Positions 1 through 60,056 of a stretch of 64,000 nt of DNA are shown one piece after another. Positions within the stretch are counted from its first letter, which is position 1, and each line of letters begins with the position of its first letter. The stretch is from sequence record PX393108.1; one strand, given 5' to 3'. The notes below the pieces were generated by a model. The model worked only from the letters and a program-made list of their open reading frames with translations, did not search any database and was not told where the DNA came from. The translations under genes were made by a program, and so were the position numbers. This DNA comes from a phage.

Positions 1-1491
1 ATTTTCAATATTATGACGTAAAGTTTTAAAGGTAACTTCTTGTCCACGGTAAAGTGTAGTTCCCGGAGGAAGAACTGATCCTTTGGCGAATGCAGAATCC
101 AGCGTCTCGATGTGTTTAATAGCTCGTTCCATGTATTCTTCACGGGTAGAATCTGGTTTACCCAAGAGGAACGAGTTCATTTCAACATATGAATCTGCAC
201 AATAATCTTCGATTACATCAGACTCAGCCTGAGTCAGTCCTTTTGGAGTTACTTCGGTGCTTGCGTATTCATATGCCTGAGCAGCAGATTCATTAATCAA
301 TTTATAAATGCCATTCATGACAAATTGAATAATAGCTACCTTTTCGTCTGGCGTGGCTTTAGAACCTTTAACTAAATCATTGATAATTTTCTTAATAACA
401 TCAAAGCTATTAGAAATATTAATGTCAGCGAGATCGCTTAAAATTTTATCGGTTTTATAATCAAAGAATTCTTTATTCTTTAAATATTCTTGAGAACCTT
501 GATATGTTATATCGCTCTGCAGCTTGATAGATGGATCACGTAAACGTGCATGGGCCAATGCAATATGATTTCGGAAGCTTTCTAGTTCATAATCATTAGA
601 TTTAAAACGAGAAGCACTTCTCATACCACCGATAGCTCCTTTGCCGAAGTTTGAACCAATCTGAATAACGCCAGAGTTCATTGGTCCTTCTGCTTTATAT
701 ACCGGAACTTTAGATTCAAACTCTTGATATTTTTTAGCGGCGAAGCTATCACCCTGAAGTGAAGCATCGACAGTAGAATATTGAGCTTGTGCTGCTAATC
801 GACGACTAATTTTAGTTTTCTGAATAACAGCTTGATCCGTACGCTTATCATTTTCTAGAGCAATAGAAGCGGCAACAGCAACAGCTTTAGGAACAGCATT
901 ACCTGTTTTAACGTCTACATAAACATCACCAACCTTTGATTCAACTTTTGTGAATAACTCAGTTGAAATAGGAGGTACACCTGGAATGTCTTCTAAATTG
1001 GCATTTTTACGGTAAACCATAATATATGCATACTTTTTATCGTAATCCCAGATTTCCTTTAAAAGAACATATCGACCTGCTCCTTTAGTACGTACTAAAC
1101 GGTCAGCAATAACTTGCATTTGACGAGCTGCACCGTTTGTTTTACTTTTTAGTACGCGGAATAGGCATGCGTCAATTTTATACTGTTTCATTGTTTGAAG
1201 AGCAGTATCAAAAACCGCATTAATGACACCAATTGGATTTCCACCCAAGTTTTTAAGTTTAACGAGCGATAGTTTCTCATTGACACCTATCATTACGATA
1301 TGCATCATTTTATCGCCTGGCTTAACGTTTTTATTTGTATCACCGCCAGAGGTGTATGTACAAAATCTAAATCCAGGAAGCACACTTTCTTCACCGGCTT
1401 GAATAGCAAAAATTTGAGGTATTTTATGCTTAGGATTTAAGTTAACAACCGGGGCCGAAGCGCCGTCAAATAATTCTGTAATAAGTTCCAT
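1..1491 (-). CDS. Alt-like ADP-ribosyltransferase paralogue; C-terminus runs off the window start
   Basis: Open minus-strand frame from ATG 1489-1491 to position 1 (absent from ORF track, no stop in window). N-terminus MELITELFD and long stretches align by eye with the adjacent alt product; DNA 1000-1490 resembles 3100-3590. LYRGQ Arg motif at window edge; SD AAGGA upstream. Confidence 0.7.
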   Translation of the reverse strand, partial: MELITELFDGASAPVVNLNPKHKIPQIFAIQAGEESVLPGFRFCTYTSGGDTNKNVKPGDKMMHIVMIGVNEKLSLVKLKNLGGNPIGVINAVFDTALQTMKQYKIDACLFRVLKSKTNGAARQMQVIADRLVRTKGAGRYVLLKEIWDYDKKYAYIMVYRKNANLEDIPGVPPISTELFTKVESKVGDVYVDVKTGNAVPKAVAVAASIALENDKRTDQAVIQKTKISRRLAAQAQYSTVDASLQGDSFAAKKYQEFESKVPVYKAEGPMNSGVIQIGSNFGKGAIGGMRSASRFKSNDYELESFRNHIALAHARLRDPSIKLQSDITYQGSQEYLKNKEFFDYKTDKILSDLADINISNSFDVIKKIINDLVKGSKATPDEKVAIIQFVMNGIYKLINESAAQAYEYASTEVTPKGLTQAESDVIEDYCADSYVEMNSFLLGKPDSTREEYMERAIKHIETLDSAFAKGSVLPPGTTLYRGQEVTFKTLRHNIEN

Positions 1492-1494
1492 GAT

Positions 1495-3588
1495 TTATCC
1501 TTGAACGAACTTGTAAGGTATGTTTGCAATATCTATGCAAGATGCAATAATTCCAAGAGATGATTCTACTTTTTGTTTAACATTTGATGAAACAAATGAT
1601 GCAAAGTCAACTCTGTCTCCTATTTCAATATCACCTGTCATTGCAACTACTTCACCAGTTTCCATTAGACGGTCACCGTCATAAATTACTGATTCGGTGA
1701 GTTCTTCCGTAGTCATAACTTCAGCTTGAATGAGTTTTGTATTATTAGATGTTGTTCCGTCATTATTAGAAGCATCAGTTATTTTATTAACTTTGACCAT
1801 CAATCCTCGTGGTAGAATAACTTCAGCTTCTGTTGCTATTCCGAGACTTCCTGGATATACAACATTAACTTTATGAGCTCCATCAATTGCCCATCCTATT
1901 TGAACTTTAACGTATTCAGGATTTTCTTTATACGCTCTTATTTCGCTTGGATTAATAGTTATTCCTTCTTCATTTTTATCAACTGTCAATTCATTACGAG
2001 CTTCTGGTTCTAAAAGACCAATACCAGCATGCGTAATTCCAAAACGCCCAAAAATGATAGGAGTTAAAGAAGTAGATACAAAATTTCTGAAATAGAACAC
2101 TTTATTTTTAACTAGCGCTTCGTATATAGGAGCAGTCATACTTTGAGCACGATAAACTGTAATGCCTTCTGGTATACGGTCACCGTTTTCAAAAGCTGAA
2201 TCTAAGTTATTTATAGCAGATTCAATTTCTTTTTCACTCATTACATCATATCGTTCTGGATTGTAGCGTCCTAAAAGAAGATTATTGATGTCAGTATATC
2301 CTGAACCACAATACTCTCTAATGCCGCGCTTTTGTGATGGAGTATATTTAGAACCATCACGGGCAATAGTAATATCAATCATTGGACCTGCACCAATTCC
2401 AGAAAAGCTATAAATCATTCTTTTGAGGAATTTAGTTTTTGCTGCGTTCCAGGAATTTTTAGTCATTTCTTCCCAGACTTCATCTGGCTGTCCTTTACGT
2501 GTTTTATTATGTTTATCAAGCCATTTATCTTTGTATTCTTCAAAGAATTTATTAACAGCTGCTGCGTATTTCTCTAAACATTTTATTGAAGTAGTTGGTT
2601 CATTTTTAATCGCATTAAGAATTACATCTTTAATTTTTTCAGAAACTTCATTAACCTCACTTTTTGAAAAGAATTTATAATCATAGTGAAGTTCATCTGC
2701 GGTTCCTTCGGCAATAATTTTTGCTGCCTTAGTTTTAGAAGCCAATGAATTAATTCCAAGTTTCATTTCTTCTGCTTCGGGAATTAAAGGAGCAGTAGCA
2801 GGTTTATTGAAATTAGCTGCGGTAGATTCATACTTCTGGAATAATTCACTTTCAAATCTAGAAGATTCTAATGATTGACTTTGCGCAATTGCTCTACGGG
2901 AAATTTTAACTTTAACGATTACAGCTTGGTCAGAACGCTTATCATTTTCTTGTGCAATAGATGCTGCAATTGCCTCATTTTTAGTTACTTGAGCTCCAGT
3001 ATCTTTATTGATATAAACATCGCCGACTTTCGATTCAACTTTAGTAAAGAGCTCGGTACTAATTTCCGGAACTCCTGGAATGTCTTCTAGTGATACATTT
3101 TTGCGATGTATAAGAATATATGCATACTTTTTATCGTAATCCCAGAGTTCCTTAAGAAGGACGTATCTGCCACCTGAACGACTACGGATAAGTCTATCAG
3201 CAATAAGTTGAATTTGACGAGCTTGACCAGCAGTTTTAGACTTAAGAATACGGAGCATACAGGCATCAATTTTATACTGACGCATCGTCTGCATCGCAAC
3301 AGTAAAAACTGAATTGATGTAATTAATTGGGCTTGGACCAAGACCTTTTAATTTAGCAATTGAACCTTTAGCAGTTAATGTAAAAGGAACAATATGCATC
3401 ATTTTATCGCCCATCTTTAAATCGCGATTAGTATCACCTCCAGATGTATAGGTACATAAACGAAAGCCTGGTTGTTCAATTGCGTCATCAACATGAACTG
3501 AAAAAATTTGTGGTATTTTCTTCTTTGGATTTAAGTTTGTAATCGGAAGAGTAGTATCTTCGTCAAATAATTCTGTAATGAGTTCCAT
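1495..3588 (-). CDS. alt: Alt, capsid-packaged ADP-ribosyltransferase
   Basis: ~697 aa directly downstream of the gene 30 region as in T4. ART-like R/S/E motifs (VYRAQ, STS, EAEV). Second ATG chosen because SD GAGAGGA abuts the first. TATAAATA late promoter upstream. Confidence 0.85.
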   Translation of the reverse strand: MELITELFDEDTTLPITNLNPKKKIPQIFSVHVDDAIEQPGFRLCTYTSGGDTNRDLKMGDKMMHIVPFTLTAKGSIAKLKGLGPSPINYINSVFTVAMQTMRQYKIDACMLRILKSKTAGQARQIQLIADRLIRSRSGGRYVLLKELWDYDKKYAYILIHRKNVSLEDIPGVPEISTELFTKVESKVGDVYINKDTGAQVTKNEAIAASIAQENDKRSDQAVIVKVKISRRAIAQSQSLESSRFESELFQKYESTAANFNKPATAPLIPEAEEMKLGINSLASKTKAAKIIAEGTADELHYDYKFFSKSEVNEVSEKIKDVILNAIKNEPTTSIKCLEKYAAAVNKFFEEYKDKWLDKHNKTRKGQPDEVWEEMTKNSWNAAKTKFLKRMIYSFSGIGAGPMIDITIARDGSKYTPSQKRGIREYCGSGYTDINNLLLGRYNPERYDVMSEKEIESAINNLDSAFENGDRIPEGITVYRAQSMTAPIYEALVKNKVFYFRNFVSTSLTPIIFGRFGITHAGIGLLEPEARNELTVDKNEEGITINPSEIRAYKENPEYVKVQIGWAIDGAHKVNVVYPGSLGIATEAEVILPRGLMVKVNKITDASNNDGTTSNNTKLIQAEVMTTEELTESVIYDGDRLMETGEVVAMTGDIEIGDRVDFASFVSSNVKQKVESSLGIIASCIDIANIPYKFVQG

Positions 3589-3612
3589 CATATCCTCTCT
3601 AGTGTTTATTCT

Positions 3613-3620
3613 ATTTATAA
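3613..3620 (-). promoter_or_regulatory. T4-type late promoter (TATAAATA) for alt
   Basis: Reverse complement of tatttata sits ~20 nt upstream of the alt start. Confidence 0.6.
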
Positions 3621-3624
3621 AATT

Positions 3625-3642
3625 AAAGGCCCGAAGGCCTTT
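3625..3642 (-). terminator. UUCG-tetraloop hairpin (AAAGGCC-UUCG-GGCCUUU)
   Basis: Perfect 7-bp inverted repeat with a 4-nt loop, followed in transcript orientation by a U-rich tract; lies between the small ORF and the alt promoter. Confidence 0.5.
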
Positions 3643-3829
3643 AATAATCTATTGGTAAGAGAGTACGATATATTTCAAACTTTGGACCTTTTTCATAGGC
3701 ATCAAATGTTTCTGTGAATTTATTATAAGCATATGCATCTATAAATTCAATCATAATTTGTGATACAGAAGTAGAAACATCTCCACCTTCTTTTTGAGCA
3801 ACGACAATTGTTTCTAAGTAAGCTTTCAT
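3641..3829 (-). CDS. hypothetical small protein (62 aa)
   Basis: ORF track; start overlaps the gene 30 stop (ATGA), suggesting translational coupling. Confidence 0.5.
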   Translation of the reverse strand: MKAYLETIVVAQKEGGDVSTSVSQIMIEFIDAYAYNKFTETFDAYEKGPKFEIYRTLLPIDY

Positions 3830-5289
3830 AGACCAGTTACCTCATGAAAATCACCAAATACATCCTCGAATGTATTAGCTTTAGTTTTATCTTCACGTAA
3901 ACGAATCGCAATTGGAAGAAATAATTTTACGTAATCAGTGCGGCCATCAGATTTTAGCCAACCGTTGCATTCGCACTCTAGAATTTTTCCAATATAATAA
4001 TTTTGGTTTTCCATAATGCGAGTACGGTCAAGTTCATGCGATTTTACACCGGCTTTATCTTTTAAGCCTGAACCAGCATTTACTTTAATTTTTCCACATT
4101 CTGATTCAAGAATAAATCCACCCGCTTTAGTAGGGTCTTTACGGTGAGGATAAATTCCTACAATTTTTAAATCAACATCAATTACTTCTTTAAATTTATA
4201 GAGATTTTTTGAACGAGCATTTTCCCACAATCCATCGATATTTTTGAGAATAATACCTTCAAGACCTTGGTCAATATATTTTTTATAAATTACCTTAGCT
4301 TCATCTAGGTTATTTACTACCTGGTTTTCAATTAAAATTACTTTATCATAACCTGATGTCATTTGTTCTAGTTTAGAAAAACGTACATCATATTTCAAAC
4401 GAAATGCAGGAAGACCGTATATTTCTACCAACGGGACATAATCCCAGACCTGAAACTTCATGCATTGAGCTTCTTTTTCAGAAATGGTTCCCTTTAAAGA
4501 TTTATTGGCGATGCCATTAGATGCAGTACGTGATTCAGCTACTTCGGCGAATTCTTTAGCTTTACTAATTTCAGGATAAGCATCAAAAAGAAAATCTAGG
4601 CCTTCTGGTTCCTTTTTAACTTGCTCATGGTATACCAATTCGCCATCAATTAACACACCTTCTGGATGAATCTGGCGGGCTTCAGCAGTCATTTTGATTA
4701 ACTCTTCCTTAAGAAGATCTAATCCTAGATATTCATTACCAGCTCGTGATAAAAGACGAACATCATCTAATTCATCGCCTCGGACTTCAGCAAAACACCG
4801 AGCTCCATCTGCTTTTAACTGCGCAAAGGCTGGAAACTTGATATTCTTACTAATGCCTTTTTCATCATAAGAACTTGCCAGCATTTGAGGTTGTTCAGGA
4901 ATTAAACCTGGCCAAACTTTATTTGCAATAGATACTGAAGCACCGCATTCAAGGTCTCGCATCATAACTCGACGCAAAACTTCAACATCATCCTTTTTAC
5001 CATCGGTGATATATCCAATTAATTCCTCAATTGCCGCATTTCCAGTCAATTTCCGAGTAGCTAACGTGAATTCAATGAAGTCAAGCATATCGGTAATAGT
5101 CAGCATTCCAAAACTCTGGGTAGCAATACCAGGTTTAGGCCATTTCTTGATATAATACTGTAACCCACGAGAATAAGTTAGACGATATACTCGTTTAAGC
5201 AATTCATTATCTTTATTCTTTTCAAGAATTGCTTGCTTCTGCTTAGTTGATCCAATAGATGCTATTTCATTCAGAATTTTAAGAATCAT
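3826..5289 (-). CDS. 30: ATP-dependent DNA ligase gp30
   Basis: 487 aa; MILKILNEIASIGSTKQKQAILEKNK... matches T4 DNA ligase as recalled; adenylation motif KADG (FAQLKADGARC). Confidence 0.97.
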   Translation of the reverse strand: MILKILNEIASIGSTKQKQAILEKNKDNELLKRVYRLTYSRGLQYYIKKWPKPGIATQSFGMLTITDMLDFIEFTLATRKLTGNAAIEELIGYITDGKKDDVEVLRRVMMRDLECGASVSIANKVWPGLIPEQPQMLASSYDEKGISKNIKFPAFAQLKADGARCFAEVRGDELDDVRLLSRAGNEYLGLDLLKEELIKMTAEARQIHPEGVLIDGELVYHEQVKKEPEGLDFLFDAYPEISKAKEFAEVAESRTASNGIANKSLKGTISEKEAQCMKFQVWDYVPLVEIYGLPAFRLKYDVRFSKLEQMTSGYDKVILIENQVVNNLDEAKVIYKKYIDQGLEGIILKNIDGLWENARSKNLYKFKEVIDVDLKIVGIYPHRKDPTKAGGFILESECGKIKVNAGSGLKDKAGVKSHELDRTRIMENQNYYIGKILECECNGWLKSDGRTDYVKLFLPIAIRLREDKTKANTFEDVFGDFHEVTGL

Positions 5290-5555
5290 TGTTCATCCTT
5301 CAGAGTTTGATTTACAGCTCTATTATAAATCAATTCATCATTAAGCTCAGTCAAAGACTTATGATATGTAGTTCTAACTTTATTTCCTTGCATCCAGTGC
5401 TTGATATAAATGAAACCTTGCTCTACGCATTTTTTAAAAATTCGTTCGTCTTTTTGAGCTCGGAATTCTGGATTGCATCTAAAAAATTGATTTACGTGAC
5501 CGTAATCACGCGTAGTATTACCTTCATTTTCATAAATAGTGTGAACGACAAACAT
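5286..5555 (-). CDS. hypothetical protein (30.1 position)
   Basis: ORF track, 89 aa; ATGA overlap with the gene 30 start region; synteny. Confidence 0.6.
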   Translation of the reverse strand: MFVVHTIYENEGNTTRDYGHVNQFFRCNPEFRAQKDERIFKKCVEQGFIYIKHWMQGNKVRTTYHKSLTELNDELIYNRAVNQTLKDEQ

Positions 5556-6403
5556 TAGAATGCTCCTTGGAAAATATTATCACCACAAGTAGGTCTATTA
5601 TACAAATACTCTATTCCACCAGGTTTAATATAGTTCCATGTCTGAAATGGATGTGTCTGATATGGATGATATGGATGATATAGATGATTATAAGGATTAA
5701 CTCCAGGCGTTCTCCAGGTAGTATTCCAAGGAAAAGAATTGTTTTTAACCATCTTCTCAATTACATCTTTTATAGCTTTTTCACTATCAAAACTTTCTTT
5801 ATTTTCCTTTGGTGAAAAAAGCTTATTTTCTACATCATTCCATGTATAAACTCGCTGCGCAGTTTTTGGAATATTGTCACGCTCTCCTCGAGCCATCCAA
5901 TAAACTGGAACATTTAATATTTCACTCGCGTGGTCGCAGTGGTGAGCGAGATCGTCAATATAACAAATTACGTTATATTTCTCTTTTGCCTTTTTGAATA
6001 ACTCTTCTTTTGAAGAATCATGACCACACATCATTACTTCTGAGAAGGCACCAGGAAAAAGAGCATTCAAATTAAATTGACGATTCAGCAGAGCGTCAAT
6101 AGAATCACCCAATGCTGTAACAGCTACAAAATTATAATCTTCTTTTAATTTGTTAATTACACACAGGGCATCTTTATATGGAGACAAGTAACGAATAAAA
6201 TCTGATCGATTGTATTTTTCAATTAGCTTGACGCCAAGTTCTTCATCACAATTAAAGAGTTTACCTGGAGAAATAAATTTCTCATCTTGGATCATTTTTA
6301 AAATATGTTCTAATGGAAGATTATATTTCTGGGCAAAATAAGGAAGGCCTGATTGCCAGCTTAAACATACACCATCAATATCAGTCAAAATAGTTGGCTT
6401 CAT
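5555..6403 (-). CDS. HAD-superfamily hydrolase-like protein with His/Tyr/Pro-rich C-terminal tail (30.2 position)
   Basis: 282 aa; N-terminal LTDIDGV resembles HAD motif I (DxDGV). C-terminal NPYNHLYHPYHPYQTHPFQ encoded by a 9-bp tandem repeat. Confidence 0.6.
   Translation of the reverse strand: MKPTILTDIDGVCLSWQSGLPYFAQKYNLPLEHILKMIQDEKFISPGKLFNCDEELGVKLIEKYNRSDFIRYLSPYKDALCVINKLKEDYNFVAVTALGDSIDALLNRQFNLNALFPGAFSEVMMCGHDSSKEELFKKAKEKYNVICYIDDLAHHCDHASEILNVPVYWMARGERDNIPKTAQRVYTWNDVENKLFSPKENKESFDSEKAIKDVIEKMVKNNSFPWNTTWRTPGVNPYNHLYHPYHPYQTHPFQTWNYIKPGGIEYLYNRPTCGDNIFQGAF
5650..5690 (-). repeat. short tandem repeat (~9-bp unit, ~3-4 copies) inside the 30.2-like ORF
   Basis: gatatggat gatatggat gatatagat seen directly; encodes the HPY repeats. 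Confidence 0.6.
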
Positions 6404-8013: not shown

Positions 8014-8346
8014 TTATTTTACTACTTTCCAGTGCTGCATGTCAAGTTTACCAACTTTTTTCATCTTCTCAATTAAGCGTTCGGCACGTTGGCGAGCTGT
8101 AACATAATACCATTCACCCAATTCATTTTGTTCAATTTTTCCAACGATTACTGTATTCAATTCATAAATCCAACCAGTAAAGAAATTATGAACTTGGATT
8201 GTAAAGGTGAAATCTGTTCCCATACCTTCTGTTGTTTCTACTTCAATAATATCACCTTCAACTGCCATTAAGAACCACATAGTTTCATCATATTTACCAT
8301 TGAAGCATTTAGTTTTAACTGTGGCGTTCAGATTAATCGTTTTCAT
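8014..8346 (-). CDS. hypothetical protein (110 aa)
   Basis: ORF track; early-type promoter upstream. Confidence 0.55.
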   Translation of the reverse strand: MKTINLNATVKTKCFNGKYDETMWFLMAVEGDIIEVETTEGMGTDFTFTIQVHNFFTGWIYELNTVIVGKIEQNELGEWYYVTARQRAERLIEKMKKVGKLDMQHWKVVK

Positions 8347-8373
8347 TTTATTCTCCTTTGTTTGTGTAAGATA

Positions 8374-8403
8374 ATACTATCACAAAGGAACTATACTGTA
8401 AAC
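8374..8403 (-). promoter_or_regulatory. T4 early-type sigma70 promoter (-35 GTTTAC, 18-nt spacer, -10 TAGTAT)
   Basis: Reverse complement of gtaaac at 8398-8403 and atacta at 8374-8379, downstream of a terminator hairpin. Confidence 0.45.
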
Positions 8404-8433
8404 AACTTTATGCAATCTTTGGAAAATAAAAAA

Positions 8434-8451
8434 GGACTCCCGAAGGAGTCC
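8434..8451 (-). terminator. rho-independent terminator (GGACUCC-UUCG-GGAGUCC plus U-tract)
   Basis: Perfect 7-bp stem with UUCG loop, then UUUUUUAUUUU in transcript orientation. Confidence 0.6.
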
Positions 8452-8456
8452 TCAAC

Positions 8457-8633
8457 TTATGCTTTCTGCTTACCAAAACGAGAAGCATCATCTCGAAGAA
8501 CCGCACGTGCTCGGCGCATGATCTTCTCAACAGTTTGATTGATACGAGAGTTCGACCCACGCTTGTAACCAGCGCGTTTAGAATCACCAACTTTCTTTTC
8601 AACTGCTTTCTTTGCTTTAGCTTGTTTTGCCAT
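8457..8633 (-). CDS. small highly basic protein (58 aa from internal ATG)
   Basis: MAKQAKAKKAVEKKVGDSKRAGYKRGSNSRINQ...; the internal ATG has a GAG-type SD whereas the track ATG (8675) has none. Confidence 0.45.
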   Translation of the reverse strand: MAKQAKAKKAVEKKVGDSKRAGYKRGSNSRINQTVEKIMRRARAVLRDDASRFGKQKA

Positions 8634-8827
8634 TATAAATTCTCTTTTAAATGAAAATGCAGGACTTATTGGCATTGCCTGCGAAAGCCCTCAAGGGGTA
8701 CTTAGGTTTTGAATATTTACCGACAGGATAACCATAAACCTCGTCAACATTCAAGAGGTACACCGTAAAACAAAGTTCGACGGCTCCTCGTTTTAACTTC
8801 ACACTAAGGCAGTGACTCTCCAATAAA

Positions 8828-9076
8828 TTACTTCAGTGTTACCACAAAGTGACGAACTGCTTTTCGTGCGGCAGAAGCCAGAGGCTTAGCATATTTAAGT
8901 TCATCTTTTTCCTGGAGCTCAGCAGCTAATGCAGTTTGAGCAGGATTCAGATGTTTGAAATAACGCAGGATTTCAAGAGCTTCGGCTTCAACATCAATAG
9001 ATGCGCCATAGTTTTCGTGACCATTATTCCATGCGTTTCGTTGCAGTTCAAGAGCGTGTTGTAATTGTTTAATCAT
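8828..9076 (-). CDS. rIII: rIII lysis-inhibition accessory protein
   Basis: 82 aa; position next to gene 31; sequence MIKQLQHALELQRNAWNNGHENYG... matches recalled T4 rIII. Confidence 0.8.
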   Translation of the reverse strand: MIKQLQHALELQRNAWNNGHENYGASIDVEAEALEILRYFKHLNPAQTALAAELQEKDELKYAKPLASAARKAVRHFVVTLK

Positions 9077-9215
9077 TTAAAAATTCTCGTTAGAGATTAA
9101 AACTCGGTAGTCACGTTCTTCTGAATTTCATCTTCTTTCGACAGATCTCTCAGTTGTAGACTACCACGTAGAATTGTTCGGTTAACTTATTATTCCGACA
9201 CCCAATTCATATTAT

Positions 9216-9223
9216 TATTTATA
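9216..9223 (-). promoter_or_regulatory. T4-type late promoter (TATAAATA) upstream of rIII
   Basis: Reverse complement of tatttata in the 147-bp spacer between gene 31 and rIII. Confidence 0.45.
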
Positions 9224-9559
9224 TCACTTATAAAGACACGGAATAGCTTTATAGTGACAGGTAACGAATTTTTGTTTAATTTCTTTTGGCTGCTTAAGAC
9301 CCAGAGCTACAAAAGGATGTGGAACGTTTCGAATTTGACCAACTGGAAGAGAAGTCAAATCACCAACTTCACAGAAACCTTCAGGAACATCAGGACCAAC
9401 AGAGTGAATTACACACAGTTCAGGAACTTCACCTTGAACACGTTTACCGATAATAAGTCCTGATTCTGTAACTTCTTCATCACCGGCTTGTGCAGGTTCA
9501 GAAACTAAAATAACATATTCACCGACAGCACGAATTGGTAGCTGTTGTACTTCAGACAT
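9224..9559 (-). CDS. 31: gp31 co-chaperonin (GroES analogue)
   Basis: 111 aa, correct size and position; [29 protein letters not shown]... matches recalled T4 gp31. Confidence 0.9.
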
Positions 9560-9615
9560 CGTTTTTCCTTTTTGTTAACAGATGAATTAATAATAACAAA
9601 TAATTCTTAAAGCAT

Positions 9616-9924
9616 TTATTTACCAATAAATTGAAGCAAATGCTCAACTTTCATACCATTAACGGAAATCAATTTGTCAATAGAAAAACCTCGCCATGCA
9701 CCAAGCTCAACATCAAATACTGGAATCATATCAGTAGATTCTTTCCGAGTAGATTCAGTCAATTTACCGGTTTGCATAGTTGGCATAAAGTCAGCATCAC
9801 GAGTGCCTTTCATAGTACGAATAGTACCATCAGACTTTTCAAAAACCACGTTTGAAATACCCATGGACAATTTAGTTTTCAAAATTTCACGAATTGCTAC
9901 TTTCTGTTCAGTTGTCAGTTTCAT
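9616..9924 (-). CDS. hypothetical protein (31.1 position)
   Basis: ORF track, 102 aa; synteny. Confidence 0.6.
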   Translation of the reverse strand: MKLTTEQKVAIREILKTKLSMGISNVVFEKSDGTIRTMKGTRDADFMPTMQTGKLTESTRKESTDMIPVFDVELGAWRGFSIDKLISVNGMKVEHLLQFIGK

Positions 9925-10161
9925 TTATTTACCTATTACAGTTTTATGATAAATTGTTCCACGTTCTTTAAGAGTGGAAAGTAATTTTTGATATTTTTCT
10001 AAATCAGATTTCCAACTATGCGGTCTATCAATACAAACCCAGTTTGACTTATAATACTGTTTCCACCTAGAGAAAAAATACTTCTTATACTCTACAGCAA
10101 ATGAAATGTTCTCGGTAGAATAAGAACTAATTGCTGTGAGCTGTACCAAACGAAATTTCAT
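9925..10161 (-). CDS. hypothetical protein (31.2 position)
   Basis: ORF track, 78 aa; abuts the cd start. Confidence 0.55.
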   Translation of the reverse strand: MKFRLVQLTAISSYSTENISFAVEYKKYFFSRWKQYYKSNWVCIDRPHSWKSDLEKYQKLLSTLKERGTIYHKTVIGK

Positions 10162-10742
10162 TATTCACCACAGAATTCGTTGATATTTTCCCAGTTTAAC
10201 TTATTCAAGTTTTTCTTAGGAACATTAAACACTTCAATACCCGCATTTCGCAGAATATCATCCCAGCCAGGTTTATTTTTATCATATGTTTCGCAATAAA
10301 CCAGCTTTTTAATTCCAGATTGAGCTATCGCTTTTGCACAATCTGGGCAAGGAGAAAGTGTTACATACATAGTAGCACCTTCAATTGAAGAACCATTTCG
10401 TGCAGCAAACAAAATCGCATTTAGTTCAGCATGAATTTCATTTTTAGACGACCACTCAGAGTGAGCACTACGATGTTCTTTCGCCAAGACAAAACGATCA
10501 GTTGAACCAAATGATACGCATTCAGGCTTATGACCTTGAATGATAGTATGTTTAGGCTTATTCAGCAACCAACCTTGCTCAGCAGCATAATCGCAGCAAT
10601 TCACACCCCCGGCAGGTGAACCATTATATCCGGTAGAAATAATACGTCCATTCTTTTCAATTACTGCTCCTACCTTCCAGGAGCAACATTTTGATTCTTG
10701 TGATACTAAATATGCAATTTGAAGTACTGTACTCGCTTTCAT
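10161..10742 (-). CDS. cd: dCMP deaminase
   Basis: 193 aa; cytidine/dCMP deaminase zinc motifs HAELNA and PCPDC. Confidence 0.95.
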   Translation of the reverse strand: MKASTVLQIAYLVSQESKCCSWKVGAVIEKNGRIISTGYNGSPAGGVNCCDYAAEQGWLLNKPKHTIIQGHKPECVSFGSTDRFVLAKEHRSAHSEWSSKNEIHAELNAILFAARNGSSIEGATMYVTLSPCPDCAKAIAQSGIKKLVYCETYDKNKPGWDDILRNAGIEVFNVPKKNLNKLNWENINEFCGE

Positions 10743-58821: not shown

Positions 58822-59424
58822 TTATAGATTAAATCCTTCAAAATCAAGAGTATAGATAGTGTATGTTGAATACTTTTTATACTCGTATCTATCCGCAATT
58901 CTAAATACACTTCCAGCTGGTATCATTACTTCTTGTTCATCTGAAACTAATTCCATATTACGATAACGATGGCTATCCGGAAATTTAAAACTCGGACTAT
59001 ATTCTTTACAACGTAGAGCTTTTATAGCATACTCCTGAAAATTAAATACCATAGGAGCTTTGAATTCAAAAATAACTTGCGTGTTGTATTCTAATCCAGA
59101 AGCAAAATGCAGAGCTATATTTTTATCATATGAAGCTGATACTACTTTATCGAATGTAATAATATCAATTCCTTGATTTAACACCTGTTTAGTCTCAACT
59201 GGAACACCTCTCCAAAGAGGTTTATCGTTTGGAACCAAACGAGATTTGATTATTTCATTTAACCAAGAATGATCGTCTGGCTTATTAGTAATACAATGAA
59301 TTAAAAGTTCAATTTCTGATAAATTAAATCCTTCAGAAAGTAATTCTTCGCGAATAGAAGCACGCACAGATGCATCCATTGATTTGATTTTAAAATCTTT
59401 TAATTGCATTGCTGAATATTTCAT
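58822..59424 (-). CDS. modB: Mod-family ADP-ribosyltransferase (200 aa; downstream copy)
   Basis: LWRG (Arg), SASY (Ser-x-Ser) and EQEVMIP (ExE) ART motifs. modA versus modB assigned only by gene order, and the lengths do not fit that order cleanly. Confidence 0.7.
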   Translation of the reverse strand: MKYSAMQLKDFKIKSMDASVRASIREELLSEGFNLSEIELLIHCITNKPDDHSWLNEIIKSRLVPNDKPLWRGVPVETKQVLNQGIDIITFDKVVSASYDKNIALHFASGLEYNTQVIFEFKAPMVFNFQEYAIKALRCKEYSPSFKFPDSHRYRNMELVSDEQEVMIPAGSVFRIADRYEYKKYSTYTIYTLDFEGFNL

Positions 59425-60056
59425 TCAACTACCTCAATATCATACACTTTAAATGTTCCAAATGAATCGTGTAATTTTTCTTTTGAAATAGAAGTTATTT
59501 TATACTTTCCAATTGGAATCATCCATTCTTGTTCACGCACAATCATCATTAAGTTATCAGTACGTTCTGAATCTAATCCATCAGTATCTTCATATGTATA
59601 CTTAAACTCAGTATTAGGAGAAGAAAGTATAATATCGCTGATATGGTCAGAGTAATTAAAAGCTTTATCAGTTTTTAAGCGAAGTACTATTTCAGTGAAA
59701 TATTCAGCATAAGAAAAAGAACACGCTGTATGCAAACTAGTAGTAAATGAATCTACTCTGTTCGTTGAAAACACTTCTCCGACTTGTAAATCTTTAATGA
59801 GTTCTTTTGTCGATTTTGATATACCACGATATAACTGATAAGGTGATTCAGTTAAATGCTTTTTAATGATTTTATTCAACTGCCGATGAAGAGCTTCATT
59901 CTTTTTGGCTTCCATACATTGCCAAAGAACTGACTGTTCAAAGTCAGTAAATTTTTCACAGACCTTTTTATACATATCATATTGAAAATCGACACTTTCA
60001 GCTTTTATAGATAACTGTTCAACATCTGCGAGATTAATAATCATGATAGCCTCCAT
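59421..60056 (-). CDS. modA: Mod-family ADP-ribosyltransferase (211 aa; upstream copy)
   Basis: LYRG, STN and EQEWMIP ART motifs; early promoter upstream. Symbol tentative. Confidence 0.7.
   Translation of the reverse strand: MEAIMIINLADVEQLSIKAESVDFQYDMYKKVCEKFTDFEQSVLWQCMEAKKNEALHRQLNKIIKKHLTESPYQLYRGISKSTKELIKDLQVGEVFSTNRVDSFTTSLHTACSFSYAEYFTEIVLRLKTDKAFNYSDHISDIILSSPNTEFKYTYEDTDGLDSERTDNLMMIVREQEWMIPIGKYKITSISKEKLHDSFGTFKVYDIEVVE

Follow-up and report, generated by a model that had tools for sequence, protein, structure and literature searches.

At the start of a 64,000-nucleotide stretch of phage DNA (sequence record PX393108.1, here called the window) the gene alt for an Alt-type ADP-ribosyltransferase (ART) is directly followed by a second, diverged open frame of the same kind, which we call the paralogue. 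We consider it probable that this paralogue is a second functional Alt-type transferase that is made late, packaged and injected into the host, likely with targets of its own. Like T4 Alt it would enter the prohead core, have both of its ends cut by the gp21 protease, stay in the mature head and leave it together with the DNA. Within the first seconds of infection it would then attach ADP-ribose from NAD+ to arginines of host proteins. Paralogue and Alt would most likely modify different sets of host proteins, as judged from their middle regions and loops, and the phage would thus have two injected transferases plus ModA and ModB, which are made early in infection. The tandem pair as such is already known: it is annotated in hundreds of Tequatrovirus GenBank records and is ordinary for this phage group, and the duplication has been remarked on by the T4 record, by Nolan et al. 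2006 and by a 2026 paper.

The window derives from a T4-like phage genome. In a nucleotide comparison, its bases 1-6000 match 545 phage records, with Shigella phage KRT47 (Tequatrovirus ime09) as top match (98.0%, full length), and in most of those records two ART genes are annotated under the match. On the minus strand DNA ligase (gene 30), alt.1 and alt are followed by the paralogue frame, which runs off the window edge. An earlier note on this DNA had claimed that a second frame with the same MELITELFD start as alt lies right behind it, and this is what we found: after a 3-nt gap the frame is open from position 1491 to base 1 for all of its 497 codons, the last 188 codons being located beyond the edge. 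Its ATG (1489-1491) lies 3 nt past the TAA of alt, with a Shine-Dalgarno-like AAGGA 6 nt before the ATG, and over the shared part there are two non-synonymous changes compared to KRT47 gp193 and ime09 alt.-2. The ART-type motif LYRGQ, which the same note had seen at the window edge, could be located at 40-54 (aa 480-484 of the fragment).

The proposed co-linear similarity over about 500 residues is borne out by pairwise alignment with alt, as BLASTP aligned 504 columns at 44% identity with 61% positives (E 2e-125), which is far beyond chance. Analyzed in 50-residue bins, identity to alt amounts to 56-76% in aa 1-250, falls to 10-14% in the all-helical aa 250-400 (helices are predicted at aa 250-414 of the paralogue) and is 22-49% from aa 401 on, comprising the ART domain and the tail. 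The likeness is therefore not confined to the N-terminal region, and the ART domain of the paralogue also matches its family profile. In a hidden Markov model search for ART domains both products lie above the cut-off of Pfam ADPrib_exo_Tox (PF03496), alt with 129.2 bits and the paralogue fragment with 37.5 bits (cut-off 23.4; aa 416-489, profile positions 13-86 of 196). The latter match is partial because the domain is cut by the window edge, and the full-length KRT47 orthologue reaches 72.8 bits over profile positions 13-191. Furthermore, phrog_802 ('Alt-like RNA polymerase ADP-ribosyltransferase') matches the database protein P0001, which is 99% identical to the paralogue, from end to end (E 2.5e-255); no NCBIfam model matches either alt or the paralogue.

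Per-domain selection and motif conservation were analyzed in 13 genomes, and the motifs LYRGQ, FVSTSL and EAEVILPRG (aromatic-Arg, Ser-Thr-Ser and Glu-x-Glu) are invariant in all 13 paralogue orthologues, FVSTSL, EAEVILPRG and the stop codon being located beyond the window edge and read in relatives. A PDB sequence search with the full-length paralogue gave no match at E <=0.01, and the PDB chains of C3-like toxins, iota-like toxins, Certhrax and Vis were reached by the family profile only. This profile aligns the YR and (Q/E)xE-LLPR segments with the C3-like and iota-like toxins, and LYRGQ of the paralogue aligns with YRG of the C3-like toxin 4xsg. The AlphaFold model of a full-length paralogue-type protein (mean pLDDT 76) has a predicted ART fold and superposes on known transferases, with values of 15.1 for the arginine transferase Vis, 12.4 for both Certhrax and C3bot2, 11.2 for Tre1 and 11.1 for VIP2. 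Profile score, catalytic arginine, STS and ExE motifs (in the orthologues) and the modelled fold are those of the R-S-E clade, in which T4 Alt has been placed as part of the Alt/VIP2 family with a conserved late, baseplate-adjacent context (PMC5512222, PMC9503650). Judged from sequence, the paralogue appears to be a functional member of the Alt family and an R-S-E type ART with predicted transferase activity. The bacterial arginine/asparagine ART toxins (Vis, Certhrax, C3, iota/CPILE-a, VIP2, SpvB and Tre1) show 15-25% identity to it and differ in their delivery, which is accomplished by secretion systems or binary toxin components and not by a phage head. ADP-ribosylation of the RNA polymerase alpha subunit is known for T4 Alt only (PMC9503650) and may well not hold for the paralogue. 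As its ART-domain Pfam score is below that of alt (72.8 vs 129.2 bits), one might also think of a protein that is packaged but catalytically inert, which could be a structural part of the core, assist or regulate Alt, or act as a decoy; we regard this as very unlikely.

An interruption of the frame at full length was not found in the named relatives, as the paralogue runs through 685 codons (2058 nt) in KRT47, ime09, RB14, AR1, D5505 and bov9_1. Using an exact-protein look-up of alt.1 we collected eight related genome or metagenome contigs with 95.4-97.4% DNA identity, none of them being the window's genome. All eight carry the tandem 697-aa and 685-aa genes and in seven of them the paralogue is intact. 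In the eighth, L017 (Logan DRR634204_19, 8339-10394), a frameshift near codon 600 divides it into pieces of 599 and 78 aa, which represents either an assembly error or an independent inactivation. Exact-sequence look-ups of the window Alt, in its 697 and 698 aa forms, gave no match. The C-terminal 188 aa past the window edge are present at an identity of at least 95% in 403 phage records, including RB14, RB18, AR1, ime09 and T2. For the paralogue orthologues the pairwise ratio of non-synonymous to synonymous substitution rates (dN/dS) is 0.02-0.05 with a dS of up to 0.26, and for the single domains it is 0.017 (N-domain), 0.070 (linker, i.e. the middle region), 0.029 (ART domain) and 0.016 (C-tail). 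That the gene is non-essential is clear from the deleted remnant left in T4 and 90 further records and from the broken copy in one related contig. Both would be expected for a decaying duplicate that has no function of its own and is heading to the T4 state. Against this stand dN/dS values of 0.016-0.07 in every domain, the constant length of 685 aa, the catalytic and processing motifs kept in 13/13 genomes and the 403 records mentioned above. Such strong purifying selection excludes a decaying duplicate in our view, and we give this explanation almost no credence.

The state found in T4 itself can be explained by a deletion. T4 alt.-1 and alt.-2, annotated as hypothetical proteins of 61 and 67 aa, represent the same gene as the paralogue in deleted form: the T4 remnant shows 97% DNA identity to the first 357 nt of the intact gene and then jumps to its last 20 nt and the downstream region (96% identity; compared stretches L003 (T4) 5066-5451 and L001 4434-6491). 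The break lies inside a 9-bp direct repeat, CTAAAAAGT, which is present at both ends of the missing ~1.69 kb, and the loss of one A from an A-run led to the split into alt.-1 and alt.-2. Alignment and the repeat at the break thus identify alt.-1/alt.-2 as a deletion derivative of the paralogue, whereas the note in the T4 record describes a duplication of the first part of alt instead. The T4 junction was found in 91 records, natural isolates among them. In the remaining matching records both halves of the junction query are found, but apart from each other; this holds for ime09 and AR1, which have the gene annotated as intact, and likewise for T2.

Alt and the paralogue have the same direction and by direct reading of the DNA neither a terminator nor a promoter is located between them, which is most simply read as co-transcription into a late message; in T4, alt belongs to the late genes (PMC9697503). 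A predicted T4 late-promoter box, TATAAATA, stands ahead of both genes (Table 1). A second exact copy of this octamer is located on the minus strand at 2208-2215 within the coding sequence of alt, ~720 nt upstream of the paralogue start. It may be due to chance or may drive a separate late transcription of the paralogue; the whole window contains eight such octamers vs 9.0 expected from shuffled sequence. A scan of 1-4200 for sigma-70 promoters and terminators gave no enrichment over shuffles and missed the alt.1 hairpin.

T4 Alt belongs to the prohead core with ~40 copies, undergoes trimming by the gp21 protease and enters the host by ejection (PMC9958956, PMC9026906), and its cuts have been mapped by mass spectrometry to ITE-6 and LTE-619 (PMC5694885). 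In a Klebsiella T4-like phage with a single alt, abundant ADP-ribosyltransferase peptides have been described in virions. The earlier note had assigned an N-terminal L-I-T-E site of the gp21 type to both proteins of the window, and at the level of the motif this could be confirmed since MELITE is identical to the T4 Alt propeptide. The paralogue also has a putative gp21 site at its other end, where the orthologues read Q-L-E-E↓S followed by VYDGDHLMETGE (the arrow marking the predicted cut), nearly the same as in Alt. The tail of the orthologues is conserved as L-x-E↓SVYDGDxLMETGE, and the C-terminal processing site reads (L/I)-x-E↓S throughout the Alt family. Within the paralogue, constraint is strongest on the N-domain and the C-tail. 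The late promoter, ITE-6, the C-terminal L-x-E and the conserved N-domain together make packaging, processing and injection of the paralogue likely.

Late expression alone is no proof of incorporation into the head, however. ModA and ModB are ARTs of T4-type phages that are not packaged (PMC5512222), and the paralogue might similarly be active only late in the producing cell, acting there on host or phage proteins. We regard this as unlikely, as the exact MELITE, the N-domain and L-x-E↓SVYDGD..METGE, a segment that in T4 Alt is removed by gp21 in the prohead, are not only kept but most constrained, which is hard to explain without a role in assembly and processing. Several further points weigh against a packaged and functional second transferase. 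The literature searched contained neither virion proteomics nor an activity assay or a target list for the paralogue and all biochemistry concerns Alt of T4, a phage without an intact paralogue, so we infer its packaging from its features. An IPIII-type capsid-targeting sequence has not been found in other core proteins (PMC9958956), and the conservation of the N-terminus is circumstantial evidence for packaging. The STS and ExE motifs and the stop codon of the window's own gene are taken from relatives which are 95-98% identical in DNA. Finally, the break near codon 600 in one of the eight related contigs and the T4-type deletion in 91 records show that the paralogue is dispensable at least on some hosts.

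A closer look was also taken at the N-terminal domain. Pfam PF26846, which is newer than the local Pfam copy used for our scans, is precomputed on all homologues including P0001 and the 685-aa genes of the eight contigs, and the paralogue shows the layout of the Alt family with an N-terminal PF26846 followed by the PF03496 ART domain. Modelled alone with AlphaFold, the N-domain is predicted with a pLDDT of 84 and a pTM of 0.82. A profile of the N-domain compared with 1.84 billion representative proteins found 73 clusters only, most of Alt length (~560-710 aa), and apart from two weak, repetitive matches the domain is located at the N-terminus in all of them. Ten cluster members were scanned and six gave a Pfam match, which was PF03496 in all six, the other four being without a recognised domain. 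A role of the N-domain as general head-delivery module on many kinds of effectors was thus rejected at sequence level. A Foldseek search with the N-domain against BFVD retrieved Alt homologues and, more weakly, large uncharacterised proteins of unrelated myoviruses as well as proteins of other myoviruses named as zeta toxin, ParB/Srx or deaminase proteins (E 1e-7 to 1e-4, TMq ~0.5). At fold level these predicted similarities leave room for a wider delivery module, but such a role is not claimed here.

Regarding the targets, middle region and active-site loops are almost entirely different in the two copies. Besides the unrelated middle region, there are indels between STS and ExE in the comparison of the paralogue with Alt proteins, and the residues just before ExE vary (GFPSEAE vs GIATEAE vs APSNEME in T4). 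In C3-like and iota-like toxins the loop before ExE (ARTT loop) contributes to substrate choice. With a differing middle region and differing active-site loops, different target sets are the natural expectation. Going further, one could propose that by means of its private helical region and loops the paralogue acts on host proteins untouched by Alt, e.g. on part of a toxin-antitoxin or anti-phage defence system; an action of T4 Alt on MazF is already stated in the title of Alawneh et al. 2016. This more specific proposal is doubtful at present. If it is true, the 1.69-kb deletion in T4 would explain why the paralogue was never studied, and some of the contrasts between T4 and T2/RB-type phages in their sensitivity to defence might be due to the paralogue. 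The two N-domains of the window share identical tracts of 18, 20 and 32 nt. Moreover, the database proteins P0003, P0004, P0005 and P0007 are of the paralogue type (85-96% to the window fragment), yet have an Alt-type N-terminus, MELITELFDEDTTLPITNLNPKKK, which suggests recombination or gene conversion between the tandem copies.

Comparison with known systems shows that the paralogue shares with T4 Alt phrog_802, PF26846 and PF03496, the four-part layout, MELITE, the C-terminal L-x-E, R-STS-ExE, the locus and the late promoter context, but the two proteins are only 42% identical overall (10-14% in aa 250-400) and differ in the loop before ExE. Its orthologues are alt.-2 of RB14 and ime09, the second 'alt' of AR1, KRT47 gp193 and YEO24877-8 of SHFML-11 / 6phi13, which are located at the same position, are named 'Alt-like RNA polymerase ADP-ribosyltransferase' and show 97-99% protein identity with no difference of substance. 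The pair has been described as two Alt-like paralogues that are 43% identical, for which an expanded target range and an enhanced suppression of host defence were proposed (PMC13600099). This is the 'diversified arsenal' suggested in the earlier note, which has thus already been published as a proposal. Nolan et al. 2006 listed duplications that gave alt paralogues, among them T4 alt.-1/alt.-2 and a full-length copy in 44RR, and 44RR ORF187c/188c and RB49 ORF183c are tandem alt expansions at this locus in other Tevenvirinae lineages (PMC1524935). Dhakavirus WG01 (L004 521-6633) even has three tandem Alt-like genes of 631, 693 and 707 aa between alt.1 and alt.-3, with gp199 being nearest to the paralogue (51%) and gp200 nearest to the window alt (67%), so the locus ranges from one to three copies across the Tevenvirinae. 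T4 ModA and ModB resemble the paralogue in being R-S-E clade ARTs encoded as a tandem pair in the same phage group, but they comprise ~200 aa only, have neither N-domain nor propeptides, and are early and not packaged (PMC5512222).

The alt gene of the window is of the RB14 type. Its open reading frame (1495-3591, minus strand) comprises 698 aa when counted from the first ATG; starting at the second ATG (3588), which gives MELITELFD, the product has 697 aa. Compared to T4 alt it is a mosaic with 94-100% identity in aa 1-250 and 84-96% in aa 601-697, enclosing a middle part with 26-38% in aa 251-400 and 45-74% in aa 401-600 (50-residue bins), and the RB14-type middle was found at an identity of at least 95% in 315 phage records. 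Its ART core is 88-96% identical to Dhakavirus WG01 gp200, while the N-domain of gp200 shows just 28-52% identity in aa 1-200. From this, the catalytic module of alt seems to have been exchanged between genera independently of the N-domain.

The locus is typical for the Alt family, lying between gene 30/alt.1 and alt.-3/gene 54 behind a predicted late promoter. The conserved synteny is 30 - alt.1 - alt - paralogue - alt.-3, with alt.1 serving as marker, and in relatives the paralogue is found between alt and alt.-3, adjoining the baseplate genes 54 and 48, which are transcribed convergently. Downstream, the paralogue is followed by alt.-3 (DUF5498; L001 4083-4373), which lies past base 1 of the window; in T4, mutations that extend the C-terminus of alt.-3 escape the CmdTAC defence system (PMC11618068). 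A second tandem ART pair is located at 58822-60056 on the minus strand, encoding proteins of 200 and 211 aa that belong to phrog_832 ('RNA polymerase ADP-ribosylase'). It corresponds to two tandem 'RNA polymerase ADP-ribosylase' genes of phage slur02, which we take as modA/modB as they adjoin srd and dda. Together with the alt pair the window thus encodes four R-S-E transferases in two pairs. An Rfam search of the whole 64-kb window found no family at gathering score and no group I intron was recognised.

Table 1: Features of the alt locus with their positions in the window.
Feature	Position	Strand	Remarks
alt paralogue, first 497 codons (full-length 'alt.-2' type, 685 aa in relatives)	1-1491	minus	open frame
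Predicted N-terminal propeptide MELITE of the paralogue (6 residues), ends in gp21-type site I-T-E	1474-1491	minus	identical to T4 Alt propeptide
Paralogue N-terminal alpha/beta domain, aa 12-240	772-1458	minus	Pfam PF26846 'Tevenvirinae_ADPRT'; best-conserved part between the copies
Paralogue all-helical middle region, aa 241-415	247-771	minus	unrelated in sequence to the same region of alt
Paralogue ART domain start, aa 416-497, with catalytic-arginine motif LYRGQ	1-246	minus	Pfam PF03496
alt/paralogue junction	1492-1502	minus	last alt codon, TAA (1495-1497), 3-nt spacer, AAGGA (1498-1502); read directly
alt, RB14-type allele, 697 aa + stop	1495-3588	minus	97-99% identical to Alt of KRT47, RB14 and bov9_1; 72% to T4 Alt
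alt N-domain	2866-3555	minus	
alt helical linker	2458-2865	minus	
alt ART domain	1708-2457	minus	VYRAQ 2143-2157, FVSTSL 2065-2082, EAEVILPRG 1804-1830
alt C-terminal L-T-E site (aa 630-632) and predicted C-propeptide	1498-1692 (C-propeptide)	minus	
Regulatory spacer upstream of alt	3592-3642	minus	hairpin, late-promoter box, ribosome-binding site
GAGG ribosome-binding site of alt	3594-3597	minus	
T4 late-promoter box TATAAATA	3612-3619	minus	downstream of hairpin, ahead of alt and paralogue
Terminator hairpin AAAGGCC-TTCG-GGCCTTT	3625-3642	minus	overlaps alt.1 stop; read directly; terminator annotated at the same place in phage D5505
alt.1	3641-3829	minus	62 aa, function unknown, neighbour upstream of alt

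In summary, the knowledge about Alt comes entirely from T4, a phage that belongs to the minority without the second gene (~90 vs ~400 records) and that also has the less common allele of the first one, so that most natural T4-like coliphages probably inject two ADP-ribosyltransferases. The biochemistry of T4 Alt may also not transfer to the alt allele of the window. The targets of both injected enzymes are a tractable experimental question, even if the pair itself is no surprise.

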